Shown: piece by piece, positions 3,610 to 52,948 of the stretch
Numbering within the stretch: position 1 is the first letter of the stretch
Layout of the letters: each line of letters begins with the position of its first letter
Notes under the pieces: generated by a model
The model's database searches: none
Seen by the model: only the letters and a program-made list of their open reading frames with translations
What the model was told of the DNA's origin: nothing
Position numbers and translations under genes: made by a program
DNA from: an uncultured Hyphomicrobiales bacterium
Lineage (GTDB): Bacteria > Bacteroidota > Ignavibacteria > Kapaibacteriales > UBA2268
Length of the DNA stretch: 64,000 nt
NCBI GenBank assembly: GCA_964454975.1
Contig: CAYVVD010000008.1
Span: 52,915 to 116,914 of the forward strand
Reading direction: 5' to 3'

Positions 3610-4521
3610 ATGGCAGCTAAAAAAACACGTAGAAAACCGGCTCGGAAAGAGTCGTTCGCAGACCAGGTGGTATCTTTTGCAAAAACAATCATTGGTGCAA
3701 TTATTATCGTAATGTTTATAAACGGTGCCGCTATTGCCTCATTCGTTGTTCCGACACCTTCAATGGAAAATACGGTTATGACCGGTGATTTCCTGTTTGT
3801 GAACAAATTTCTCTATGGACCCACCACCCCACAGGTGATCCCGTTTGTAAACATACCTCTGCCTTATTTTAAGTTTCCCGGTATTCGCGAGCCGGAAAAA
3901 GGAGATGTTATAGTATTTGTTTATCCCGGAAACCGCGATGAAATCGAACCGGATGAATTCCAATATTACCTGAAACGTTGTGTTGCAACCCAGGGGGATA
4001 CGCTTGAAATAACAGACAAAACAATTTATGTAAACGGTGTTAAATACGAACTCCCCGAGCATGGAAAGTTTTTCGACAGGACTGAAAGGCTGGCATCTTT
4101 TCCACCGAGCACCGAATTTACCCTTGATAATTATGGGCCTATTGCAATTCCTTACGAAGGAATGAAAGTACCATTAAGAACGCTTAAAGATTTTCATAAA
4201 TGGTCTGTTCTTATCCAGAGGGAAGGCCACGAAGTGAGTTTTGGTACGGACAGAAGCATAAAAATTGACGGCAAAACCGCTGATGAATATACTATTGAAA
4301 GGGATTATGTATTTGGTATGGGTGACAATCGCGATAACAGCGAGGACAGCCGTACATGGGGCTTTATTCCCAAAGAAAATGTAGTCGGCACACCTATCAT
4401 GGTTTACTGGTCATGGCCGGTGAGCGATTCCAGGCACGGCATTCAAAAATCATTCCTGGAGGAATTACCCGATAAACTTGCAAACATTAAATGGCACCGT
4501 ATCGGTACTATGATAAGATAG
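3610..4521 (+). CDS. lepB: Signal peptidase I
   Basis: Sits 2 nt after lepA, the classic lepA-lepB arrangement. Has an N-terminal TM helix plus the SMENT and GDNRDNSEDSR boxes. Confidence 0.93.
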   Translation: MAAKKTRRKPARKESFADQVVSFAKTIIGAIIIVMFINGAAIASFVVPTPSMENTVMTGDFLFVNKFLYGPTTPQVIPFVNIPLPYFKFPGIREPEKGDVIVFVYPGNRDEIEPDEFQYYLKRCVATQGDTLEITDKTIYVNGVKYELPEHGKFFDRTERLASFPPSTEFTLDNYGPIAIPYEGMKVPLRTLKDFHKWSVLIQREGHEVSFGTDRSIKIDGKTADEYTIERDYVFGMGDNRDNSEDSRTWGFIPKENVVGTPIMVYWSWPVSDSRHGIQKSFLEELPDKLANIKWHRIGTMIR

Positions 4522-4618
4522 GCGGAAAGATAAAAACTAATTTAATCAAACGAAGAATGTGCAGGGGCGGATTCAATAACCGCAACAGTTTAAGCACCTT
4601 ACTCAGCATCACGAATAA

Positions 4619-5551
4619 TCAGAGATTTTGAAGTTCATACGTGTAGGATGAAACAGATGATTGATTCTCAATTAGATGTCTTTGGATATACTGGCCGCAG
4701 TTGCTTCCAATATTATTTTCTTCATATACGCCTTCGCTAATTAGCACCTCGAAACCTTGCTTTCTTAATATTTCTGCCTTTTCTGCAATTGACCTGGAAT
4801 CAAAATCCCGGCTTAGATTATTCTGTTGTGCCGAATATGTAGGATTAATCGGGGTTAGTTTTAAGAGAAATATATCAGGACTAAAATTATTGACAAGGGT
4901 TTCTGACTCAATCAACTGTCCATTGTTCCCCGCAAAATTAAGAGCTATCTTTCGCCCGCCTTTATCAAAGAATTTACTTCCATAATCGGCTATTTCCCGT
5001 AAATCCCACTTCTTAACCGGTATCAACCGGTCTCGGATGACTGTATCTGTTGCATGGATTGAAAATTGTAGCTGAAAATTAAGTGGGTACTTTTCCTTTT
5101 TTATATCCAGGAGTCTTGCAAAAAAATTCTCTTTCCCTGAAGGTGCAATTGTTGATATGCAGGGCATTAGCCCGGGTGCATTGTATTTCGTTGGCAGGGC
5201 TTCCAGAACATCTAATATCGAGTTGTTAAAAGCAGGTTCACCCATTCGTGCAAATTGAATTTTGAATTTTTCACAGGGTATGGTTCCATCAGGAAACCGG
5301 TTCTTAACCATGTATTCAATTTGTGCAATTATATTTTCGGCATCTATCCTACCCCTGTAATAATAATTTGCATCGCAAAATTTGCATTTAACAGGGCATC
5401 CGTATAGCGTTGATACAATCAATACCCATTTTTTAAGCCGTGGTAGCGGTGGTTCGAGGGACTCAACAAACTCAGTCAATTCGCCGTTGCCGGTTTCAGC
5501 GATATAGACAATTGCAATATCTTCCCTGCCTGTCTTTTTTATTACCTTCAC
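4619..5551 (-). CDS. Radical SAM protein (CPVKCKFC = CxxxCxxC cluster motif), function unknown
   Basis: 310-aa ORF with a canonical radical-SAM cysteine triad. Its start overlaps the upstream oxidoreductase stop by 4 nt. Confidence 0.7.
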   Translation of the reverse strand: MKVIKKTGREDIAIVYIAETGNGELTEFVESLEPPLPRLKKWVLIVSTLYGCPVKCKFCDANYYYRGRIDAENIIAQIEYMVKNRFPDGTIPCEKFKIQFARMGEPAFNNSILDVLEALPTKYNAPGLMPCISTIAPSGKENFFARLLDIKKEKYPLNFQLQFSIHATDTVIRDRLIPVKKWDLREIADYGSKFFDKGGRKIALNFAGNNGQLIESETLVNNFSPDIFLLKLTPINPTYSAQQNNLSRDFDSRSIAEKAEILRKQGFEVLISEGVYEENNIGSNCGQYIQRHLIENQSSVSSYTYELQNL

Positions 5552-6435
5552 TCTTGCCTGTCCCTAAGAAGTTTGTTAATCTCCATCGCACATTTCATCC
5601 CGTCCCCAACAGCAATTGATACTTGCCTGTATCCATAATTTTTTACGTCGCCTGCTATGTATAAACGCCCGCTCGTTTTCAATTCATCTAATCTTTCACA
5701 AACAGTAGTTGTAAAAAAATCAATTTTAGACTTTTTACCGGTCGCAAATAACAGGTATGATATAGCGAGTTCTTTTATTTTATTATTTGAACTGTCCCTG
5801 ATTTTCAGAATCAAACCACTATTATTCATATGTAAGCTTTCAACGGCTGAGCTTTCTATTAATGAGATATTGGAAGATGCCAATGCTCTGTCTTTTAATA
5901 TTGGCAGGCATTTTGTGGTATTACTCCTGTTGATAATTAATACTGTATTATTCCTGGCTAAGTTTAAAGCATAATCAAAAGCTACGTCGCCTGCTCCAAG
6001 AATCGCTATAATTTTATCTGAGACTGCCGCTAACCCGGCAATCTCGTGATAAACCCTGGCTGAGCAATCGTCGGGAATATATATATCAGGTTCTTTTGGG
6101 CTTGCACCACAAGCAATCACAACCAATCCGGCATTATAAATATTCCGTTCTGACTTAATTATAAATTCTTCATTCTCATAATTAAGTTCAATCACTTCCT
6201 CCTTAATGAAATCTATATCAAATTTCATTAGATGCCTGTTTAATAACTCAGCCAGCGAGGGTCCGGAAATACCATCGGGAAAGCCTGGATAATTTTCAAT
6301 CAGATTGGCATTTATTACACTACCTCCCGGTTTATTTCTCTCGAACAGGACAAAGTCAATTCCATATCTATTTAATTGTACTGCTGCAGTTATTCCGGCA
6401 GGGCCGGCGCCGATGATTGCGGCTCTATGCCTCAT
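5548..6435 (-). CDS. NAD(P)/FAD-dependent oxidoreductase (thioredoxin-reductase-like fold)
   Basis: 295-aa ORF with two Rossmann dinucleotide motifs: GAGPAG for FAD and GAGDVA for NAD(P). Overlaps its neighbours on both sides. Confidence 0.75.
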   Translation of the reverse strand: MRHRAAIIGAGPAGITAAVQLNRYGIDFVLFERNKPGGSVINANLIENYPGFPDGISGPSLAELLNRHLMKFDIDFIKEEVIELNYENEEFIIKSERNIYNAGLVVIACGASPKEPDIYIPDDCSARVYHEIAGLAAVSDKIIAILGAGDVAFDYALNLARNNTVLIINRSNTTKCLPILKDRALASSNISLIESSAVESLHMNNSGLILKIRDSSNNKIKELAISYLLFATGKKSKIDFFTTTVCERLDELKTSGRLYIAGDVKNYGYRQVSIAVGDGMKCAMEINKLLRDRQE

Positions 6436-7090
6436 TTTCAGCTTCCAGATTACGTAATATGTCTTTTCCGGTCACGGGGATTGCGAATCCATGAGAGAGA
6501 TTATACAGGGCTGACATGTGAAAAGTCTCATTATATGTTGCAGTACAATCAACAGGAAAGAAAACGAAGTACCCTCTTGTAAATGCAGCCCTGGCGGTAG
6601 TTTCGCAGCAGAGATTTGTAAGTACGCCTGTAATTACAAGTTGCGAAACATCCTTGCTTTTCAGGAAATCATCAAGATTTGTTTCGAGGAAAGCATCATA
6701 CCGGGATTTGATTATAACTGTGGTATTATAGCGAGAGAGTTCCGGTATGATTTCACTTAATGTATTTTCCTCTTTTATAGAATCTTGCCACCATTTTTTC
6801 ATCATCGAATTACTGTTTTCATAATCAATGTGCCTTGTAAATACAACCGGGCGGCCATTTCCAATAAATCCATCAACTAATTTTTTAATATTCGGAATGA
6901 TAGCATCGGCGCCCGGAACGCAGGCATGAGAGCTTTTATCCAAAAAAAAGCTCTGCATGTCAATGACAAGCAAAGCAGAATTTTTAACTTCAAACGAATA
7001 AGCCAGCCTTCTTTTTATCGGTTCTAATTGCCAAAGCCAGTTTTCTGCTTTTTCCTCGAGATTTTCTTTATTAAAATATTGCTCTTTCAA
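6425..7090 (-). CDS. Isochorismatase-family cysteine hydrolase
   Basis: 221-aa ORF with LLVIDMQSFF and a VITGVLTNLCCETTARAA catalytic-Cys region. Confidence 0.8.
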   Translation of the reverse strand: MKEQYFNKENLEEKAENWLWQLEPIKRRLAYSFEVKNSALLVIDMQSFFLDKSSHACVPGADAIIPNIKKLVDGFIGNGRPVVFTRHIDYENSNSMMKKWWQDSIKEENTLSEIIPELSRYNTTVIIKSRYDAFLETNLDDFLKSKDVSQLVITGVLTNLCCETTARAAFTRGYFVFFPVDCTATYNETFHMSALYNLSHGFAIPVTGKDILRNLEAENEA

Positions 7091-7134
7091 CTATATGATT
7101 CATTCACAAATTCAATGTTTAATTCTAAATAGAA

Positions 7135-8316
7135 TCAGCTTTTCCCGTTGCGTTTTATTACATCGCGTGCTATAACCAGCTTCTGAATTTCGTTAGTACC
7201 TTCAAATATTCTATTGATGCGGCTATCACGGTAGAAGCGCTCAATCGGTAATTCCTTGGAATAACCCATGCCACCGTGAATTTGCATTGCCAAATCCACG
7301 CATTTATCTGCAAGCTCCGAGCAAACCAGTTTGACAATTGCTGACTCGCGCGAAGTCATTGTTTTATTATCGTACTTAGCCGCTGTGCGGTAAACAATAG
7401 ATTCTGCGATATAGACCGAAGCAGCCATTTCAGCGAGCATGAACTGAACAGCTTCGAAGTTCGCAATCGGTTCGTTGAACTGCTTGCGTGTTTTGGCATA
7501 ATTGGTGGAAAGTTCGAGAAGCTCCTTGCATGCGCCCATGCATGCAGCGCCAAGCCCAAGCCTGCCGGCATCAAGTGTTTTCATTGCCACGAGAAAGCCC
7601 CTTCCTTCTGTACCAATCATATTCTCTTCGGGCACGCGGACGTTATCGAACATAATAGTTGATGTCTGGCTGCCCTTTATGCCCATCTTCTTTTCCGGTG
7701 CACCGCTGGAGAAGCCTTTCATTTCACGCTCAACAACAAAACCGGTTATTCCCCTGCTTGTTCGTGCATAAACCGAGAAAATATCAGCAATCGGGCCGTT
7801 GGTAATCCACATCTTTTCGCCGTTGATTATCCACTCGTTTCCGTCTTTAACAGCTTTTGTACGCAGGTTGAAAGCATCAGAGCCGGCGCCGGCTTCTGTA
7901 AGACCGTAAGCTGCAATTTTCTCGCCTTGTGCAAGCGGCACAACATACTTTTGCTTCAGTTCCTCGCTGCCACCGATATATATTGAGTTCGTACCGATGG
8001 ACACATGCGCGCCGATGAAAGTAGCTGTGGACAGGCATGCACGTGCGATTTCTTCCTGAACAATGCAATAGCCTGTTTCGCCGAAGCCGCTTCCGCCATA
8101 CTCGGGAGGAAAGCATACGCCGAGTATTCCAAGCTCGCCGATTTTCTTAACAATTTCATCGGGGATTTTTTCATCGTCGTCAATTTTATGGGCGATAGGT
8201 TTAAGCTCATTTTCAGCAAAGTCGCGCACCATTTCGCGCAGCATTACTTGTTCCTCGGTAAAATTCAGGTCCATAGCAGCTTCCGGTAATGAAACATCAA
8301 AGCCAAAAATCGGCAA
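7135..8316 (-). CDS. Acyl-CoA dehydrogenase
   Basis: 393-aa ORF with the full ACAD architecture. The [11 protein letters not shown] motif and the C-terminal catalytic Glu region are present. Confidence 0.92.
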
Positions 8317-9583: not shown

Positions 9584-9657
9584 TCAACTTGCAGTTTCAG
9601 GCAAATAGTTTAATTTTGGACCGGGTAATTTGCCCGGTTTTTTATTTGGGGGAGATA

Positions 9658-10905
9658 ATGGAGCAGCAAATACTCAATCAGCGCGAAGCATACAAACTGA
9701 TTGAAAAAATTACTTCAGGGACTTTCAATGGCGAATTGGATTTACTAAAGACTCTTGTCAATGAAATCATACAACATTCGAATTTTGAGATTGAAGGTGG
9801 CAGAATCTGGAGTCTAAACCCGGAAAGCAATTCATATAAGCTGATTTACCAGCACGGCAGGGTAAATAAAATTCCTGATGGTTACGAAATAAAAATAGAA
9901 GGTCACGATGTTTTCAGTACGCTTATCAGTGAGAGGGCTGTATTACGCCGCGAAACTGACGGGCTGCTCCGCGAGAAGGGAATCCGGCTTTATTCGCTTA
10001 CAGGTGTAGGCAAGATTATTCCTGCAGGTAAGGATCGCTACTATAAATATGCTCTTGGCTTTAACTCGGAGAAAATAAGCGAGACCTTCGACGAAATTTT
10101 GTCGATTATAAGCAGTGTAGCTACTATTGCGCTGAGCAATCTTTCTGTAGAAGCCCGGCAGAAAAAAATCAGCAGGGATTTAGTAAAAGCATCCGAAATT
10201 CAAAACAATCTGCTGCCTGAGCATTATCTGGAGTTCCACGATTACAAAATATTCGGTATATGTGTTCCGGATGATGCCGTTGGAGGAGATTACTTCGATT
10301 ATATCAAAAGCCCTGAAAATGAGGAAGAACGCCTCAGTGTGCTGATAAGTGATGCAGCAAGCAAGGGGCTGCCTGCTGCAATCCAGGCGCTTTTTGTGTC
10401 CGGGGCAATTCGCATGGGACTTGCTTTCTCAGCGAGGATTAGCCAGTTGCTAACCTACCTCAATAATCTCATATACTACACATTCCCTTATGAGCGGTTT
10501 GTTACACTATTCTATTGTGAATTGACTCTCTCTTCAAACAGGCTCGTACTATACTCAAATGCGGGACATTGCGAGCCGATTCACTACAAGCCCAGTCATG
10601 AGAGCATAAAACAATTGCCCGCAACAGGGGGGTTATTGGGAATACTTAAAAACCAACACTTTTCACTCGAAAACATTCGCATGGACCATGGGGATGTGCT
10701 GGTACTCTACACAGACGGAATATCCGAAGCACAGAACGGTGATGGTGATTTTTACGGTACTAGCCGAATAGAAAACATGGTAAAAGAGCATTACAAAAAA
10801 GATGTGAAATCACTTGCTTACTTGCTTTTGGAGGACGTGCAGAAATATTCGGTTAATTCGCCATACTCGGATGACAAAACAATTGTTGTTATCAAAAGAG
10901 ACTAA
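9658..10905 (+). CDS. GAF-domain sensor fused to a PP2C/SpoIIE-type serine phosphatase (RsbU-like)
   Basis: The C-terminal SpoIIE/PP2C domain carries GGDYFDY, LISDAASKGLPAA and DGISEA. An N-terminal GAF-like region precedes it. Start is taken at MEQQIL, which follows a GGGGAG sequence. Confidence 0.8.
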   Translation: MEQQILNQREAYKLIEKITSGTFNGELDLLKTLVNEIIQHSNFEIEGGRIWSLNPESNSYKLIYQHGRVNKIPDGYEIKIEGHDVFSTLISERAVLRRETDGLLREKGIRLYSLTGVGKIIPAGKDRYYKYALGFNSEKISETFDEILSIISSVATIALSNLSVEARQKKISRDLVKASEIQNNLLPEHYLEFHDYKIFGICVPDDAVGGDYFDYIKSPENEEERLSVLISDAASKGLPAAIQALFVSGAIRMGLAFSARISQLLTYLNNLIYYTFPYERFVTLFYCELTLSSNRLVLYSNAGHCEPIHYKPSHESIKQLPATGGLLGILKNQHFSLENIRMDHGDVLVLYTDGISEAQNGDGDFYGTSRIENMVKEHYKKDVKSLAYLLLEDVQKYSVNSPYSDDKTIVVIKRD

Positions 10906-11176: not shown

Positions 11177-13432
11177 TTAATTCTTAATTATATCCGGTTG
11201 GTGAATGTTCTTGCAGATCTTGCAAATAAGCACTTTCTGGTTGGTTATTATCTGAACATCATTCAGCAGCGTAAGGTAGAGCATGCTCCTGCGCATATTA
11301 GCCTGGTTTTTCTTAACTCTGATTAGCTGGTTTTTCTTAAATTTCAGCACCATCTTATTCATTTCACTGTTGAGCTCATCCAGCGTTTCAAGAAGGTGAT
11401 ATTCTTTTTCCGAAATTATCTTGTGGATGGAATCATCAATGTAATTATATTTTTCAGCGATTTGATGAATTTCTTCAAGTTGATATTTGATGAATGGCTC
11501 GTGACTGTTATCAAAGTAATTGAAAGTCATGCTTGACATATTGATCATCCGATCCGATAATTCGGTTATGTACGCAAGCGAGCGGATATACTGCTGTCTT
11601 TCTTCGATTTCGTTTTCGTGAACAAGCTGCAAGAATTTCAGAATTTCTGAGCAGAGAATGTTTCCTTCAATGTTTATCTTATCTGCCCTTTTACTTGCAG
11701 TTTTCAACTTTTTATAATCCTTTTTTTCAATACCTGAAAATACTTTCCTTACTGTCTTGGAAGAGTTCATTACATAGCTAAGCATATCCTCGCAAATCAT
11801 ATCGAGTTTTGACTGTAGTAACTTTTCCTGTCTTTGAATCATCTTATCTTTTTCATTGAACTCTTTTTCGCGTCCCTTGTGTACTACAGCAGTTCGGTAA
11901 AGTGTAATTGCAGCAAGTGCAACAAAACCTCCTAACGTCCATGCCCCGCCATAGTAGAGAAGCAAAGCGATTGTACCGGCGACCATCGAAGCTGAAAGTG
12001 CCGTGAAGAACCATCCGCCGATAACGGTAATAACACCGGATACCCTGTAAACAGCGCTTTCCCTACCCCAGGCTTTGTCAGGAAGGGCTGCAGCCATAGC
12101 CACAATAAATGTGACATAAGTTGTGGATAGTGGCAACTTGGCAAATGTAGCAAGCGAAATCAATCCTGCGGAAACCATTAGAATTACTGCTGCTCGGAGA
12201 AGGTCGAATGCCGGTGCATCATTGTCCTTTGTTTCTTCCGGCTGGTATTTGGAACTGTCGAACCTTTCTTGAAAAACACGTTGAATAAAGAGGGGAGTTA
12301 TCTTTTTAACGAAAGTAAAGAAAATTAATACTATCCTTACAATTGCCCTTGCTAAAACATTAGAATCAAATCTTTCATATCCCTCATTCTGCCGGCTGAG
12401 GCGGATTGTTGTAAGCGCAACTCCATGAGCCTTTTTCGAAAAGAAAAGCGTAGAAACCATCACAAGCCCGGCAATTAGCAGCATCCATGTTTCAGCCATA
12501 ACGGGTGTATTTAGCACACTCATGTCGGCTGATGCGGGGTTTGGAGTTGAATAGGCATACTGGTAAGCATGCAGGCCGGCTAACGGCGCACCGATAAAGT
12601 TAACCAGGTCGTTTGCAGCAAATGCCAGGGCAAGGGAGAATGTTCCGAATAAAACGATTATCTTCAGGACATTGATTTTTGTGAACATTATCAGCAACTG
12701 AAGAATGATAGTCCACAAAACAAAGCTTGCCGTCAGGATATAAATTGTGTTTTGCTTAATCGTATCGGCAAGCTCGGGTGTCATAAATGATGCGCCTTTA
12801 ATTCCTTTCAGCATAATGAAGAATGTAAGGCATGTTAGGGCAAGCCCTGCCCAAATTGAACCAAATTTTCTAAATTTTTCCTTGTATCCAAATGTAAACA
12901 GGAAGCGCGTGAGGTACTGAAAGAAAGCACCGGCAATAAACGCGATAACAATAGAAAATAAAATTGCAGAAACAATCTCAAGGACTTTATCAGAATTCAG
13001 GTACATAATTGCATCGCCAAGGTTCATACCCTTTTCAAGCACTTTGATTACTGACAATGCAAGTGAACTACCTAACAAACCAAAAATAACAGACACAGTT
13101 GTTGAGGTAGGAAGGCCAAATGTATTGAAAAGATCGAGAAGAAAGATATCTTGGAACATCACGGCAACGAATATTATCAACAGCTCGCCAACAATGAAAA
13201 ACTGCGGATTGAAAATACCCGAACGCGCGATTTCCATCATACCGCCTGAAAGTGTCACACCAACCAAAACACCAATCGCTGCTACAAGGAGAATTATCCT
13301 GAATGGGGCTGCCTTTGAACCAATTGCGGAATTTAAAAAGTTAACAGCGTCATTTGCCACACCAACTGTGAGGTCAACGATTGCAAGAACAATCAGCACA
13401 ATGACAATAATTAGATTAATATCCACAGGCAT
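11177..13432 (-). CDS. Inorganic phosphate transporter, PiT family, long form with a C-terminal PhoU-like domain
   Basis: 751-aa ORF. It has the PHO4 signature GANDAVNF twice, multiple TM segments, and a C-terminal helical PhoU-like region. Confidence 0.88.
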   Translation of the reverse strand: MPVDINLIIVIVLIVLAIVDLTVGVANDAVNFLNSAIGSKAAPFRIILLVAAIGVLVGVTLSGGMMEIARSGIFNPQFFIVGELLIIFVAVMFQDIFLLDLFNTFGLPTSTTVSVIFGLLGSSLALSVIKVLEKGMNLGDAIMYLNSDKVLEIVSAILFSIVIAFIAGAFFQYLTRFLFTFGYKEKFRKFGSIWAGLALTCLTFFIMLKGIKGASFMTPELADTIKQNTIYILTASFVLWTIILQLLIMFTKINVLKIIVLFGTFSLALAFAANDLVNFIGAPLAGLHAYQYAYSTPNPASADMSVLNTPVMAETWMLLIAGLVMVSTLFFSKKAHGVALTTIRLSRQNEGYERFDSNVLARAIVRIVLIFFTFVKKITPLFIQRVFQERFDSSKYQPEETKDNDAPAFDLLRAAVILMVSAGLISLATFAKLPLSTTYVTFIVAMAAALPDKAWGRESAVYRVSGVITVIGGWFFTALSASMVAGTIALLLYYGGAWTLGGFVALAAITLYRTAVVHKGREKEFNEKDKMIQRQEKLLQSKLDMICEDMLSYVMNSSKTVRKVFSGIEKKDYKKLKTASKRADKINIEGNILCSEILKFLQLVHENEIEERQQYIRSLAYITELSDRMINMSSMTFNYFDNSHEPFIKYQLEEIHQIAEKYNYIDDSIHKIISEKEYHLLETLDELNSEMNKMVLKFKKNQLIRVKKNQANMRRSMLYLTLLNDVQIITNQKVLICKICKNIHQPDIIKN

Positions 13433-13672: not shown

Positions 13673-14836
13673 TTAGAGCTGTGCCTGCTGCTTGATCAAA
13701 TCCCCGGTTTTGTTAATCATAATAACACTCAACTCGTCGCAAAGTAGATAGCCTTCAGGCGTCAACCTGATTTTGCCATTATCCTTAAAAGCATAGCCTT
13801 TTTTTATCCATTCCCCGGTTATGTCACCAAGCCTTTCTTCAACATTGAATCCGAATTTAGCTCCCATACAGGAAATATCGAGTCCGTCGGACCTTAGCCC
13901 GAGGTAAATCCGCTCGTTTAATTCTTCTTTGGTGCCTATCGTTTCAGTTCCTTCAACCGGCAGCCGTGATTCGCTGATTGATTTAATATACCTGTTGATA
14001 CTCCGCACATTCCAGTAGCGAATATTGCCGGTGTATCCATGCGCCGAGGGGCCGAAAGCAAAGTACCTGCCGCCATGCCAGATATCGAGGTTGTGCCTGC
14101 AATACTTCCCGGGTTTTGCATAATTGGATACTTCATAATGCTCAAAACCTGCATTTGTAAGCTTTTCAATACAATAAAGATACATTTCAAAATCAATTTC
14201 TTCAGGTTGTGCCTTTACTTTGCCGATAAGCAAATCTTTATAAAGCGGAGTTCCTTTCTCATATATCAGGCTGTATGCAGATATATGGTCGGTATTGCAG
14301 GAGATTGCTCTGCCAAGGGTATGCTGCCAGCTCTGCATTGTCTGGCCGGGGATTGAGTAAATAAGGTCGAGGCTTAGATTGTCGAAGCCGGCTGCACATG
14401 CTTTTTCTATTGCTCTTTCAGCTTCATCTTCATTGTGAATCCTCTCGAGGAAATAAAGCTCATTTTTATTAAATGACTGCACGCCTATACTTACCCTGTT
14501 AATGCCAGCATCACGGAATCCGTTCAACTTTTCTTCGAGAGTTGATCCCGGGTTGCACTCGGCGGTCATCTCTGCATCTGCTGTGAAATCTACATACACC
14601 TCCAATTTTTCAATTATGCTGCTTATCTGTTCAACAGTAAGCAGCGAGGGTGTACCGCCACCGAGGAACAAGCTGTTGCATTCGGGGCGTTTTCCATACT
14701 TAGTAAAAAATAATTCAATTTCTTTCAGAACCGCAAAAACAAAGTCGCCATTTCTGCCGAGTTCCTCAATAGAATAAAAGTCACAGTAAGAGCACTTGTG
14801 AACACAAAAAGGGAAGTGGATGTATATTCCGTGCAT
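13673..14836 (-). CDS. hemW: Radical SAM heme chaperone HemW (coproporphyrinogen III oxidase-like)
   Basis: 387-aa ORF. The YIHFPFCVHKCSYCDF motif is typical of HemW/HemN-like proteins. Confidence 0.88.
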   Translation of the reverse strand: MHGIYIHFPFCVHKCSYCDFYSIEELGRNGDFVFAVLKEIELFFTKYGKRPECNSLFLGGGTPSLLTVEQISSIIEKLEVYVDFTADAEMTAECNPGSTLEEKLNGFRDAGINRVSIGVQSFNKNELYFLERIHNEDEAERAIEKACAAGFDNLSLDLIYSIPGQTMQSWQHTLGRAISCNTDHISAYSLIYEKGTPLYKDLLIGKVKAQPEEIDFEMYLYCIEKLTNAGFEHYEVSNYAKPGKYCRHNLDIWHGGRYFAFGPSAHGYTGNIRYWNVRSINRYIKSISESRLPVEGTETIGTKEELNERIYLGLRSDGLDISCMGAKFGFNVEERLGDITGEWIKKGYAFKDNGKIRLTPEGYLLCDELSVIMINKTGDLIKQQAQL

Positions 14837-14967
14837 TTTTATAAGGTAATTTACAACATCTGCATTAGACGGAATGCCTTAGTTTATACTGTTCAAACTG
14901 AATAGTTGAATTTTCGGCAATGGAATTTATTATATTTAGAAGAATTTTTATTTAAAGCCCGGTAGTG

Positions 14968-16863
14968 ATGCTAAAGTCAATATTCAGTGACGTAAAATTC
15001 CGCTTTGATGATGAAACAGAGCAGCTCTACAGGAGTGAATCTTATTCTGCAAACATCACTGTAATTAGGATTTACCTTATTCTTTCGATTGTCCTTTTTG
15101 CATTGTTTGCGCTTTTAGACCAGCTCAGCCTGCCTGAAAGCTGGGGAACAGCATTTTTCATCCGTTTCTTTGTTGTTATTCCCGTACTCGTCCTGACTTT
15201 ATCCGTTAGCTATATGCCATTCTTTGAGCGTTATAATCAAAGGATACTCACTGTAGTCGCGATTGTGATGGCATACAGCATTCTGGTAATGATAGCTGTT
15301 TCAGATTCATCGGAAGTTGCATTTTTCAATTATTATCCGGGTTTGTTTATAATATCATTTTCTTCAATTATCCTTCTTCAGTTAAGGATGATTTACTCCA
15401 TAATATTGACAATCGCCGTAATTGCCGGGTACGAATTTGTAGTGTATTCAATCCAGGGTATGCATAAACTGGAATACAACTCTGAATTGTTTGCCATTTT
15501 TCTGAATAATAATATTTACTTCGTTTCAATAGCCTCCGGTGGTGTGATTGTAGGATTCATCCTGGAGTATTTTAAGCGAAAGAGTTTTATTTCGGGGCTT
15601 GAGATAAAAGTAAAGCTAAAAGAAATCGAAGAAAAAAACAGGGAGATATACAGGCAAAAAACAAACCTTACAAAAACACTTGATGAATTGAAAGCAACAC
15701 AGGAAAAGCTGACTTCGATTATCAATAATGACATAGCAGGGATTAACGTAATCGACCTCAACATGAGATATCTTTTTGTGAACCATGCCTGGTGCAGCAT
15801 GCTCGGTTATGAAGAAAGCGAATTGTTGCAAAAGAAAGTTCTTTATGTTACTCATGTGGATGATAAAGAAATAACCAACGATTTTTTCAAGCAGGCGATT
15901 GACGGTACACTTTGGGAATACCACCTCGAAAAGCGGTATATCCGCAAGGACGGCAGCACATTCTGGGGGGATTTGTTTATCTCACCGGTTTATAATGGTT
16001 CCGGCTCAATAGAATATGTTATTTCAATTATAGTTGATATTACTAACCGGAAAGCAATCGAGCAGAACCTGATTGAGTCGGAGCAAAACCTTCTTAAATC
16101 AAACAATGAAAAAGACAACTATCTAAACCAGCTTAAGTACGAATTAAAGGTCGCTGCCGGTTACGCGAAGTCGCTCCTGCCCGATGAAATTAATGAGGGT
16201 ATATTGCATGCCGAATGGCGTCTGATACCTTCCGCTGACCTCGGCGGCGACCACTTCGGTTACCACTGGATAGATAACGAACACTTCGCCATGTATCTTG
16301 TAGATGTATGCGGCCATGGTGTTGCGCCGGCTTTGCATGCCATTTCCGTGATTAATGTACTGCGGAACAAAACACTCCCCAATACAGATTTCACAGACCC
16401 GGTAAGCGTTTTAAGCTCTTTAAATAAGACATTCCAAATGGAAAAGCACAACGATATGTATTTCACGATGTGGTATGGAGTTTTCAATAAATACACAAGG
16501 GAGCTGCTTTATGCATCCGCGGGCCATCCGGGTGCAATGCTGATTGACATGGAAGGGAATCTAGACGTGCTCGAAACGGACAACTATGTAATGGGCGATA
16601 TTGAAGATTTTGATTACAAGAAAGCAGAGGTTCTCGTAAACGGAAAGGCATTTCTTTTTATCTTCTCCGATGGTGTGTTTGAAATCGAGACAGGGGAGCG
16701 GCAGATGTGGACACAGAATGACCTATACAATTTCCTGGGCGAGGAGCTGAAGAACCCGGAATCTGAGATAGATGCATTATATAATCACGCTATAAGTCTC
16801 AACAAGGGCAAGCTCGATGACGACTTCTCTATGCTCAAAATCACTTTCAACGGGAAGGAATAG
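14968..16863 (+). CDS. Membrane-anchored PAS-domain sensor fused to a PP2C/SpoIIE phosphatase
   Basis: About 6 N-terminal TM helices, then a coiled-coil, a PAS domain (NVIDLNMRYLFVNHAWCSMLGY) and a C-terminal SpoIIE domain (DLGGDHFGY, DVCGHGV). Confidence 0.8.
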   Translation: MLKSIFSDVKFRFDDETEQLYRSESYSANITVIRIYLILSIVLFALFALLDQLSLPESWGTAFFIRFFVVIPVLVLTLSVSYMPFFERYNQRILTVVAIVMAYSILVMIAVSDSSEVAFFNYYPGLFIISFSSIILLQLRMIYSIILTIAVIAGYEFVVYSIQGMHKLEYNSELFAIFLNNNIYFVSIASGGVIVGFILEYFKRKSFISGLEIKVKLKEIEEKNREIYRQKTNLTKTLDELKATQEKLTSIINNDIAGINVIDLNMRYLFVNHAWCSMLGYEESELLQKKVLYVTHVDDKEITNDFFKQAIDGTLWEYHLEKRYIRKDGSTFWGDLFISPVYNGSGSIEYVISIIVDITNRKAIEQNLIESEQNLLKSNNEKDNYLNQLKYELKVAAGYAKSLLPDEINEGILHAEWRLIPSADLGGDHFGYHWIDNEHFAMYLVDVCGHGVAPALHAISVINVLRNKTLPNTDFTDPVSVLSSLNKTFQMEKHNDMYFTMWYGVFNKYTRELLYASAGHPGAMLIDMEGNLDVLETDNYVMGDIEDFDYKKAEVLVNGKAFLFIFSDGVFEIETGERQMWTQNDLYNFLGEELKNPESEIDALYNHAISLNKGKLDDDFSMLKITFNGKE

Positions 16864-52899: not shown

Positions 52900-52948
52900 C
52901 TACGAGATATCATTTATTTCGACGAAATCTCGTAGGTTTTTTATTTAT
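52900..52948 (+). terminator. Rho-independent terminator after the sigma54 regulator gene
   Basis: CTACGAGAT...ATCTCGTAG 9-bp stem with an inner 6-bp stem (ATTTCG/CGAAAT). A GTTTTTTATTTAT tract follows. Confidence 0.65.

Follow-up and report, generated by a model that had tools for sequence, protein, structure and literature searches.

A widely conserved gene trio joins a short RlmN/Cfr-like radical SAM protein to a thioredoxin-reductase-fold flavoprotein and an isochorismatase-family hydrolase

Do three overlapping genes for a radical S-adenosylmethionine (SAM) protein, a flavoprotein and a hydrolase belong together, and if so, what could they do? This question is raised by a stretch of 64,000 nucleotides from an uncultured Hyphomicrobiales bacterium (GTDB lineage Bacteria; Bacteroidota; Ignavibacteria; Kapaibacteriales; UBA2268), which corresponds to positions 52,915 to 116,914 of contig CAYVVD010000008.1 in the assembly GCA_964454975.1. 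We call this whole stretch the window and count its coordinates from its first letter. In the window, an acyl-CoA dehydrogenase, an isochorismatase-family hydrolase, a flavoprotein and a radical SAM protein are encoded, in that order, by four consecutive open reading frames (ORFs) of the minus strand. An earlier note, made from the letters of this DNA, had taken the last three genes for a coupled trio of uncertain function. We found that the trio is a self-contained functional unit, whose genes are translationally coupled or fused, and that its hosts are uncultured bacteria and archaea of mostly anaerobic habitats. The genes of the module and their overlaps, which were read from the sequence, are the following.

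7090-6425, minus strand: isochorismatase-family cysteine hydrolase, 221 amino acids, TTG start; first gene of the module
6435-5548, minus strand: thioredoxin-reductase-fold flavoprotein of the predicted flavin adenine dinucleotide (FAD)/reduced nicotinamide adenine dinucleotide (phosphate) (NAD(P)H) type, 295 amino acids; second gene of the module
5551-4619, minus strand: short RlmN/Cfr-like radical SAM protein, 310 amino acids, GTG start; third gene of the module
6425-6435, minus strand: overlap of the hydrolase stop with the flavoprotein start, 11 nucleotides, ATGAGGCATAG
5548-5551, minus strand: overlap of the flavoprotein stop with the radical SAM start, 4 nucleotides, GTGA

The two overlaps, the common strand and the distance of 44 nucleotides to the acyl-CoA dehydrogenase gene upstream were thus found as the earlier note had given them. 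Its three fold assignments are backed by Pfam and NCBIfam. PF00857 covers the full length of the hydrolase with 153.5 bits against a cut-off of 27, Pyr_redox_2 covers the full length of the flavoprotein with 76 bits, and the Radical_SAM model matches the third protein below its threshold (20.7 against 29.5).

We scanned one genome per GTDB species and kept the best 80 loci, each from a different species. The radical SAM protein has relatives in at least 572 GTDB species. A protein search gave thousands of relatives overall; the 119 closest that were listed are about 310 amino acids long, are 54–59% identical, and come from Cloacimonadota, Marinimicrobia, Chloroflexota, Zixibacteria, WOR-3, Krumholzibacteria, Bacteroidota and Thermoplasmata archaea. 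Close relatives are named in databases either "radical SAM protein" or, by the Joint Genome Institute (JGI) pipeline, "rlmN" ("23S rRNA (adenine2503-C2)-methyltransferase"). Using tblastn with the four window proteins, we showed that the order hydrolase, flavoprotein, radical SAM protein is kept in most of the 80 loci, so that the neighborhood conservation that the earlier note had proposed to check does exist. The loci with this order span Cloacimonadota, Zixibacteria, Chloroflexota, WOR-3, Bacteroidota, Thermoplasmatota, Methanobacteriota and others. Gene boundaries were then refined, and for the flavoprotein only loci with at least 1 kb of upstream sequence were counted (n = 76). In 73 of these 76 loci the radical SAM gene is immediately preceded by the flavoprotein gene, and in 45 of the 73 the spacing is exactly -4 nucleotides. 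A complete hydrolase gene stands ahead of the pair in 49 of 69 loci, and in 31 of these 49 it overlaps the flavoprotein gene by 4, 11 or 14 nucleotides. These counts bear out the reading of the three genes as one coupled unit. When the 929 ORFs in the 80 loci were clustered all against all, just three clusters were shared by many loci, and these are the module genes; the remaining neighbors differ from locus to locus (ftsA/ftsZ, mutS, selB, glmS, lipA and others). The trio arrangement is far beyond chance.

The components also occur as natural fusions. We searched 1.84 billion representative proteins (a library at 50% identity) with a profile and assigned the domains by Pfam. At E<=1e-30 there were 155 representatives, and several of them were long. 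In two proteins (P0126 and P0149) the flavoprotein is fused to the radical SAM protein, and in five (P0152, P0155, P0168, P0188 and P0193) the radical SAM protein carries the isochorismatase domain at its C-terminus. The latter fusion is the standard form in Elusimicrobiota, where it accounts for more than 110 protein clusters. In all three Elusimicrobiota contexts examined, the start of the fused gene lies inside that of a flavoprotein lacking CxxC, with an overlap of 4 or 14 nucleotides (the -4 spacing is found in two of the three), and the other neighbors vary. The same three components are inherited together in differing orders and fusion states, which is strong evidence for one multi-protein function. 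The earlier note had allowed for a radical SAM protein of a well-known family with neighbors placed beside it by coincidence; conservation of the neighbors extends over more than 20 phyla, and some lineages have them fused to the radical SAM protein. In one of the Elusimicrobiota loci (L101, 3398-5004), the gene of a Crp/Fnr-type regulator overlaps the start of the flavoprotein gene, and anaerobic ribonucleotide reductase genes (nrdD and a likely nrdG activase) follow the module.

The hydrolase gene is the less constant component. In about 13 loci the flavoprotein and radical SAM genes are paired with no hydrolase gene, and a few further loci hold hydrolase fragments. The genes upstream of the pair in the hydrolase-less loci encode SelB, GlmS, an NAD(P)HX repair enzyme, LipA with a true thioredoxin reductase, carbonic anhydrase and the like; we found no replacement hydrolase in these loci. 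Isochorismatase gene fragments lie upstream of an intact pair in L014 (4124-4543), L047 (6951-7067) and L063 (2437-2664), which suggests gene decay or assembly errors. In L020 (1175-3007), a canonical thioredoxin reductase gene (Pyr_redox_2, 196 bits) and a lipoyl synthase gene stand directly upstream of the pair, so that two genes of the thioredoxin reductase (TrxR) fold lie side by side there.

Does the acyl-CoA dehydrogenase belong to the module as well? It is encoded on the same strand as follows.

8316-7135, minus strand: acyl-CoA dehydrogenase, maximal ORF of 393 amino acids, three-domain according to Pfam/NCBIfam
between 7135 and 7090, minus strand: gap of 44 nucleotides from the acyl-CoA dehydrogenase gene to the hydrolase gene, read from the sequence

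The ORF is drawn from a TTG at 8316, and an ATG (MDLNFTEEQ...) follows at 8274. Profile matches begin at residues 15–20; the ATG at 8274 is therefore probably the true start, with a predicted length of about 379 amino acids. All four genes might form one pathway acting on an acyl-CoA, given the shared strand, the short gap and a promoter/terminator scan that, uninformative for the locus as it was, marked no terminator-like site between the genes. However, a homolog of the acyl-CoA dehydrogenase was found near the trio in none of the 80 loci at E<=1e-5 and in none of four further contexts, and the clustering contains no fourth conserved cluster. We give such a pathway next to no probability. 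Thus the interpretation from which we started is supported in part: the unit and the folds stand, and the link to the acyl-CoA dehydrogenase does not.

To what kind of enzyme, then, does the radical SAM protein correspond? RlmN and Cfr are class A radical SAM methylases that act on A2503 of 23S rRNA and A37 of tRNA. In their reaction, one SAM methylates Cys355; a radical made from a second SAM then converts the methyl group to a methylene radical, and this attacks C2 or C8 of adenine. Cys118 of RlmN, seven residues ahead of the cluster motif, is required for product release, and Cys118 variants remain cross-linked to RNA (PDB 5HR6/5HR7). The window protein has the following elements at the corresponding sites.

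5375-5398, minus strand: CPVKCKFC, residues 52-59, the CX3CX2C motif for the [4Fe-4S] cluster; C52, C56 and C59 are invariant in alignment A1
5417-5419, minus strand: codon of Ile45, at the position of RlmN Cys118 (in hhalign, IVSTLYGC stands opposite RlmN CVSSQVGC)
4691-4711, minus strand: IGSNCGQ, residues 281-287, invariant in A1 and aligned with RlmN DAACGQL; Cys285 is the counterpart of RlmN Cys355

The cluster motif, already noticed in the earlier note, was thus confirmed. The best NCBIfam match of the protein is TIGR00048 (RlmN), with 58.9 bits against a cut-off of 290 and over model positions 78-349 only; the Cfr models give 35–38 bits against cut-offs of 468–550. The description of this protein as uncharacterised therefore holds. 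Alignment with E. coli RlmN by hhalign gave a probability of 95% and 22% identity over RlmN 109-362, and in the comparison of homologs E. coli RlmN was 23% identical (E 5e-9). An AlphaFold2 model of the protein (predicted local distance difference test (pLDDT) score 79) had a single strong match in PDB, the RlmN homolog 6fz6 (Foldseek, E 8e-11, template modeling (TM) score 0.6). Model confidence is low in the cluster loop and in the C-terminal Cys loop, which is expected for mobile, cofactor-dependent segments.

We aligned 25 radical SAM sequences of the family (A1, mean column identity 67%). The invariant columns include CPxxCxxCD, KFK.QFAR.GEP..N, FQ.QFS.H.T, LNF, K.TP.NPT and ENxIGSNCGQ. 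Among the 119 close homologs, NCGQ is present in 118, and the position of RlmN Cys118 is occupied by I, L, T or M in all 119, and by Cys in none. The N-terminal accessory (RNA-binding) domain of RlmN is missing, and there is no full-length match above a family cut-off. The median isoelectric point of the family is 6.1 against 8.2 for the RlmN core, which is weak evidence against an RNA substrate. The radical SAM protein is a truncated and distant RlmN/Cfr-like enzyme that has lost one of the two catalytic cysteines, and judging by these scores it falls in no characterised family. Could it still be an RlmN-paralogous methyltransferase of rRNA or tRNA, to which the two partners are merely accessory? 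RlmN and Cfr are its closest characterised and solved relatives, and an identity as high as that of the 119 homologs, held across phyla and domains, would suit a conserved macromolecular substrate. However, every score is far below the family cut-offs, both the N-terminal domain and Cys118 are absent, the family is acidic, and the radical SAM protein is fused in places to a hydrolase of the small-molecule type. We consider an RNA methyltransferase quite improbable. The enzyme is probably not an ortholog of RlmN or Cfr, and a small soluble molecule is its probable substrate.

The second component, the flavoprotein, carries these elements.

6394-6411, minus strand: GAGPAG, FAD motif
6031-6042, minus strand: IAGL, residues 132-135, at the position of the thioredoxin reductase CATC ("heiagl" opposite "stcatc" of D. 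radiodurans)
5980-5997, minus strand: GAGDVA, NAD(P)H dinucleotide motif of the second Rossmann domain

The NCBIfam model TIGR01292 matches it with 165 bits, under the cut-off of 343. Its best solved relatives are thioredoxin reductases, which align end to end (E 2.6e-30 for 2q7v); the match to solved TrxR-type ferredoxin-NADP+ reductases (2zbw and 3ab1) is weak, E ~1e-9. None of 75 members of the flavoprotein family has CxxC in the disulfide region. The family consensus motifs G.GDaAFDYaL and GaGPaG are conserved in at least 80–95% of the 75 sequences, and GG(L/Q)L...ENYPGF is conserved as well. Thus the TrxR fold that the earlier note had recognised is correct, and it has to be refined: since CxxC is missing, the protein is not a thioredoxin reductase. 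The dinucleotide motifs indicate that it probably binds FAD and NAD(P)H, and together with the absence of CxxC they suggest that it would be unable to act as a disulfide reductase through its own cysteines.

What would such a flavoprotein deliver to a radical SAM enzyme? Most likely, electrons of NAD(P)H would pass via FAD straight to the radical SAM partner. With a dedicated donor of this kind, the module would need neither ferredoxin nor flavodoxin of the host. It is also possible that the flavoprotein is a chemical partner. In that case, the methylene group bound to Cys285 would be transferred to an sp2 carbon, and the resulting adduct or exocyclic methylene would be resolved by the reduced flavin, with the hydrolase acting before or after the methylene transfer. 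Every member of the family retains the Cys355 motif and has no Cys118; with the resolving cysteine missing, hydride or electron transfer from the reduced flavin would take over the resolution of the intermediate. The flavoprotein partner is obligate and sometimes fused, and a conserved Tyr/Glu ("ye") just before the position of the TrxR disulfide could form a site for the substrate or the partner at the flavin. Flavin-dependent reduction steps in ThyX/TrmFO, and BfaA (of BfaA/BfaB) in the synthesis of 10-methyl fatty acids, offer analogies. However, nothing shows the radical SAM enzyme to be a methylase, and no intermediate is on record. Members of the superfamily without Cys118 and without a flavoprotein neighbor also exist, in the phage and gut clade described below; the loss of Cys118 alone therefore does not demand a flavin partner. 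We regard the resolution of an adduct by the flavoprotein as unlikely and prefer the transfer of electrons as its role.

The third component, the hydrolase, has a predicted catalytic triad.

6959-6961, minus strand: codon of Asp44, triad residue
6707-6709, minus strand: codon of Lys128, triad residue
6608-6610, minus strand: codon of Cys161, predicted nucleophile of the triad

The columns of D44, K128 and C161 are invariant in an alignment with E. coli RutB and two module homologs, and we take them to be the RutB triad Asp24/Lys133/Cys166. The motifs D..Q, K.qYDaF and hlCCEtTaR are present in at least 80–95% of 52 hydrolase sequences, and SHA, WW and CC motifs are specific to the family. All named NCBIfam equivalogs score far under their cut-offs: BiuH 58.5 bits against 370, RutB 58.6 against 378, PRK11440 50.8 against 195, PncA 33.4 against 174 and YcaC 28.2 against 310. 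The best solved relative is EntB (2fq1, E 4e-17). In the isochorismatase fold, a catalytic cysteine such as that of the window protein points to hydrolysis of amides or ureido groups and not to vinyl-ether cleavage. Nicotinamidase, a member of the isochorismatase family, hydrolyses heteroaromatic carboxamides, which is an example of the substrates that such enzymes can take.

Some hints about the substrate came from a sister clade. The closest clade outside the radical SAM family is 31–33% identical (E 1e-33 to 1e-38). Its proteins, of about 318 amino acids, come from gut Firmicutes, prophages and phages and match phrog_24834, which has no assigned function (E 1e-29). At the Cys118 position they carry Thr, and their C-terminal motif is TCGN. 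In the seven gene contexts of this clade that we examined, no flavoprotein partner was seen. In one of the seven (L090) an isochorismatase gene is adjacent; its product is only 20% identical to the window hydrolase, and we did not use it. Two phages carry short RlmN-like radical SAM proteins of phrog_24834. That of Bacteroides phage Versailles (L083, 4833-5840) has Thr at the Cys118 position and TCGN, and that of Salmonella phage Arash (L084, 4923-5852) keeps both RlmN cysteines (MCVSTQ...CGQL). In L092 and L094 (approximately 4001-4969), sister-clade genes lie in prophage-like regions with several DNA cytosine methylase genes, of which one contains an intein, and a SAM synthetase gene.

Sister-clade proteins are also found as fusions. 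QueT, a transporter of queuosine precursors, is fused to the radical SAM protein in P0224, and in P0245 and P0263 a PNP_UDP_1 domain follows as the third part. For the QueT domain, PF06177 scores 39.8 and 37.0 bits (cut-off 33.7); the nucleosidase domain is a bona fide methylthioadenosine/S-adenosylhomocysteine (MTA/SAH) nucleosidase (224 bits against 169). In phage-like DNA of L098 (6001-7542), a sister-clade gene for a protein of 513 amino acids lies between the genes of guanylate kinase and a YfbR-like 5'-nucleotidase; the extra region of this protein has no Pfam match, and the only domain found in the whole protein is Radical_SAM. In this clade, short RlmN-like enzymes without Cys118 are thus associated with the handling of nucleobases or nucleotides, not with ribosomes.

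This association raises the possibility that the trio salvages or remodels a 7-deazaguanine formed in the synthesis or the breakdown of queuosine or archaeosine. The radical SAM protein would then be a paralog of QueL, and the hydrolase would act on a heteroaromatic carboxamide or amidine side chain, a substrate type within reach of isochorismatase-family enzymes. The fusions to QueT and to the nucleosidase and the related gene next to that of guanylate kinase agree with this. QueL is a radical SAM queuine lyase, encoded in C. difficile beside the gene of an S-component of an energy-coupling factor (ECF) transporter (PMC11130926, PMC11477304, PMC12632869), and the sister clade, with its QueT-fused proteins, may consist of QueL relatives. 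However, the only InterPro entry that the authors list for QueL (C. difficile CD1684, Q186P0) is the generic IPR006638, and the transporter beside C. difficile queL is QrtT (IPR024529), not QueT. No tgt or que gene and no preQ1 riboswitch was found near the trio in any locus examined, and most sister-clade genes lie in prophage-like DNA beside DNA methylases. We therefore think it very unlikely that the trio acts on 7-deazaguanines.

Taken together, the trio can be described as an NAD(P)H-driven radical SAM system for a small soluble molecule, with the flavoprotein as the electron donor and the hydrolase carrying out an adjacent step. This overall picture is tentative, and we give it slightly less than an even chance. 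The core catalyst would be a shortened RlmN/Cfr-type enzyme that keeps the [4Fe-4S]/SAM site and the mobile C-terminal loop with Cys285. With the RNA-binding domain and the second catalytic cysteine lost, its substrate would most likely be a small soluble molecule instead of rRNA or tRNA; a purine-like compound, or some other heteroaromatic one, is plausible. The hydrolase with its intact triad would cleave an amide or ureido bond in either the substrate or the product. We infer the direction of electron flow, the small-molecule nature of the substrate and the type of chemistry, which may be Cys-mediated one-carbon transfer or of the lyase type. Our confidence falls from a radical SAM enzyme acting on a small molecule to the supply of electrons by the flavoprotein, then to the amide or ureido step of the hydrolase, and finally to a substrate that may be nucleobase-like.

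Several points weigh against this picture. The trio is not described in the literature that we searched, in keeping with the earlier note, which had recognised no pathway in the combination, and no substrate, product or activity is on record for any member. There is no riboswitch upstream of the trio in 33 loci at the Rfam gathering thresholds and none in the window at E<=0.1, and no conserved regulator near the trio hints at a ligand. No case is known to us in which a TrxR-fold flavoprotein passes electrons directly to a radical SAM cluster. By sequence, true thioredoxin reductases (E 1e-30) are far nearer to the flavoprotein than the TrxR-type ferredoxin-NADP+ reductases are (E ~1e-9), and its role could instead be to reduce the substrate or an adduct on a protein thiol. 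Since the hydrolase-less loci mentioned above still carry the pair, the hydrolase may be dispensable or encoded elsewhere. Strictly speaking, an enzyme without the N-terminal domain could still act on RNA. The link to QueT belongs to the sister clade and not to the trio family.

Further searches added little. At the gathering thresholds, the Rfam matches in the related loci were tRNAs and one flavin mononucleotide (FMN) riboswitch only; the latter (L040, 7568-7683, plus strand, 115 bits) is located some 2 kb downstream from the trio and is probably unrelated to the module. PADLOC defence models gave marginal Rossmann-type matches to the three proteins and one DpdC match with E 0.007, none of them meaningful. 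The trio family had no match in plasmids and no member in IMG/VR, and the phage matches belong to a different clade. We also considered synthesis of a 2-methyladenine cobamide ligand, mid-chain lipid methylation, anaerobic catabolism of pyrimidines or purines, and repair of NAD or flavins, and set them aside, having found no supporting context.

A module that tailors a cofactor or a metabolite, as the earlier note had suggested, is a reasonable candidate reading. In a more specific form, the trio would be an unrecognised radical SAM system, in which an enzyme of the class A type, deprived of its second catalytic cysteine, depends on the disulfide-less TrxR-like flavoprotein and, with a cysteine amidohydrolase, makes or recycles a modified nucleobase or cofactor that is widespread in anaerobic bacteria and archaea. 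The flavoprotein would be either a built-in NAD(P)H-driven reductase or the resolver of a Cys-CH2-substrate adduct. In this form the proposal is speculative, and we hold it to be rather doubtful.

The folds of the components are known. New against the literature that we searched are the combination, the loss of Cys118 with the Cys355 loop kept, and the obligate flavoprotein partner. The module is common and strongly conserved over many candidate phyla and across the divide between bacteria and archaea, and annotation pipelines mislabel its products as RlmN or "isochorismatase family protein"; a corrected annotation matters for the metabolic reconstruction of uncultured anaerobes. To our knowledge, class A radical SAM chemistry has so far been found only in RlmN and Cfr acting on RNA. 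If the proposed function is true, this chemistry would extend to a new class of substrates, and the trio could include the first radical SAM enzyme with a thioredoxin-reductase-fold reductase of its own. The natural fusions are ready-made constructs for biochemistry.

In the window, the trio is flanked by ordinary housekeeping genes: purE, an OsmC-like gene, lepA and lepB lie on one side, and dapA and SpoIIE-type phosphatase genes on the other. Genes observed nearby, two phosphatase genes among them, are as follows.

9589-10905, plus strand: SpoIIE/PP2C-type phosphatase
11177-13432, minus strand: ORF of 751 amino acids with a PHO4 phosphate-transporter match over the first ~330 residues only; the C-terminal ~420 residues have no Pfam match at E<=1e-5
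13673-14836, minus strand: second radical SAM gene, of the HemN/HemW type (Radical_SAM and HemN_C), 9 kb away and unrelated to the module
14965-16863, plus strand: second SpoIIE/PP2C-type phosphatase, with PAS sensor domains

How does the trio compare with known systems? The flavoprotein resembles TrxB in the two-Rossmann-domain fold over its whole length, in the FAD and NAD(P)H motifs and in GG(L/Q)L...ENYPGF. It differs from TrxB in having no redox-active disulfide and in being genetically tied to a radical SAM enzyme. With the TrxR-type ferredoxin-NADP+ reductases it shares the absence of CxxC, although the sequence similarity to them is weak (E ~1e-9). Among the isochorismatase-like cysteine hydrolases, RutB, BiuH, N-carbamoylsarcosine amidase and PncA are of the nearest kind to the hydrolase. 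Its Asp-Lys-Cys triad columns align with those of RutB, and its N-terminal part and "WW" loop are like those of EntB. The true isochorismatases (EntB and PhzD) lack the nucleophilic Cys, whereas the hydrolase family has it. Nicotinamidases carry Asp-x-His metal ligands; by our own reading of the alignment, which is not conclusive, the hydrolase has "T-R-H" at the aligned metal site.

The sister clade is like the radical SAM family of the trio in that the RlmN N-terminal domain is missing, no Cys occupies the Cys118 position and the C-terminal Cys-Gly is kept. It differs in having TCGN in place of NCGQ and in its prophage-like contexts. As for RlmN and Cfr themselves, the radical SAM protein is only 22–23% identical to them, about 100 residues shorter and without the N-terminal domain, and its family has no equivalent of Cys118 and an acidic rather than a basic core. 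The family also has an obligate flavoprotein and a hydrolase as partners, and we know of no such partners for RlmN or Cfr. What it shares with these enzymes is the fold, a core collinear with RlmN 109-362, the CX3CX2C motif, the strand motifs GEP..N, S.H...D..R...P and N(L/F)..(P).NP, and the C-terminal CGQ loop with the cysteine that is methylated in RlmN.

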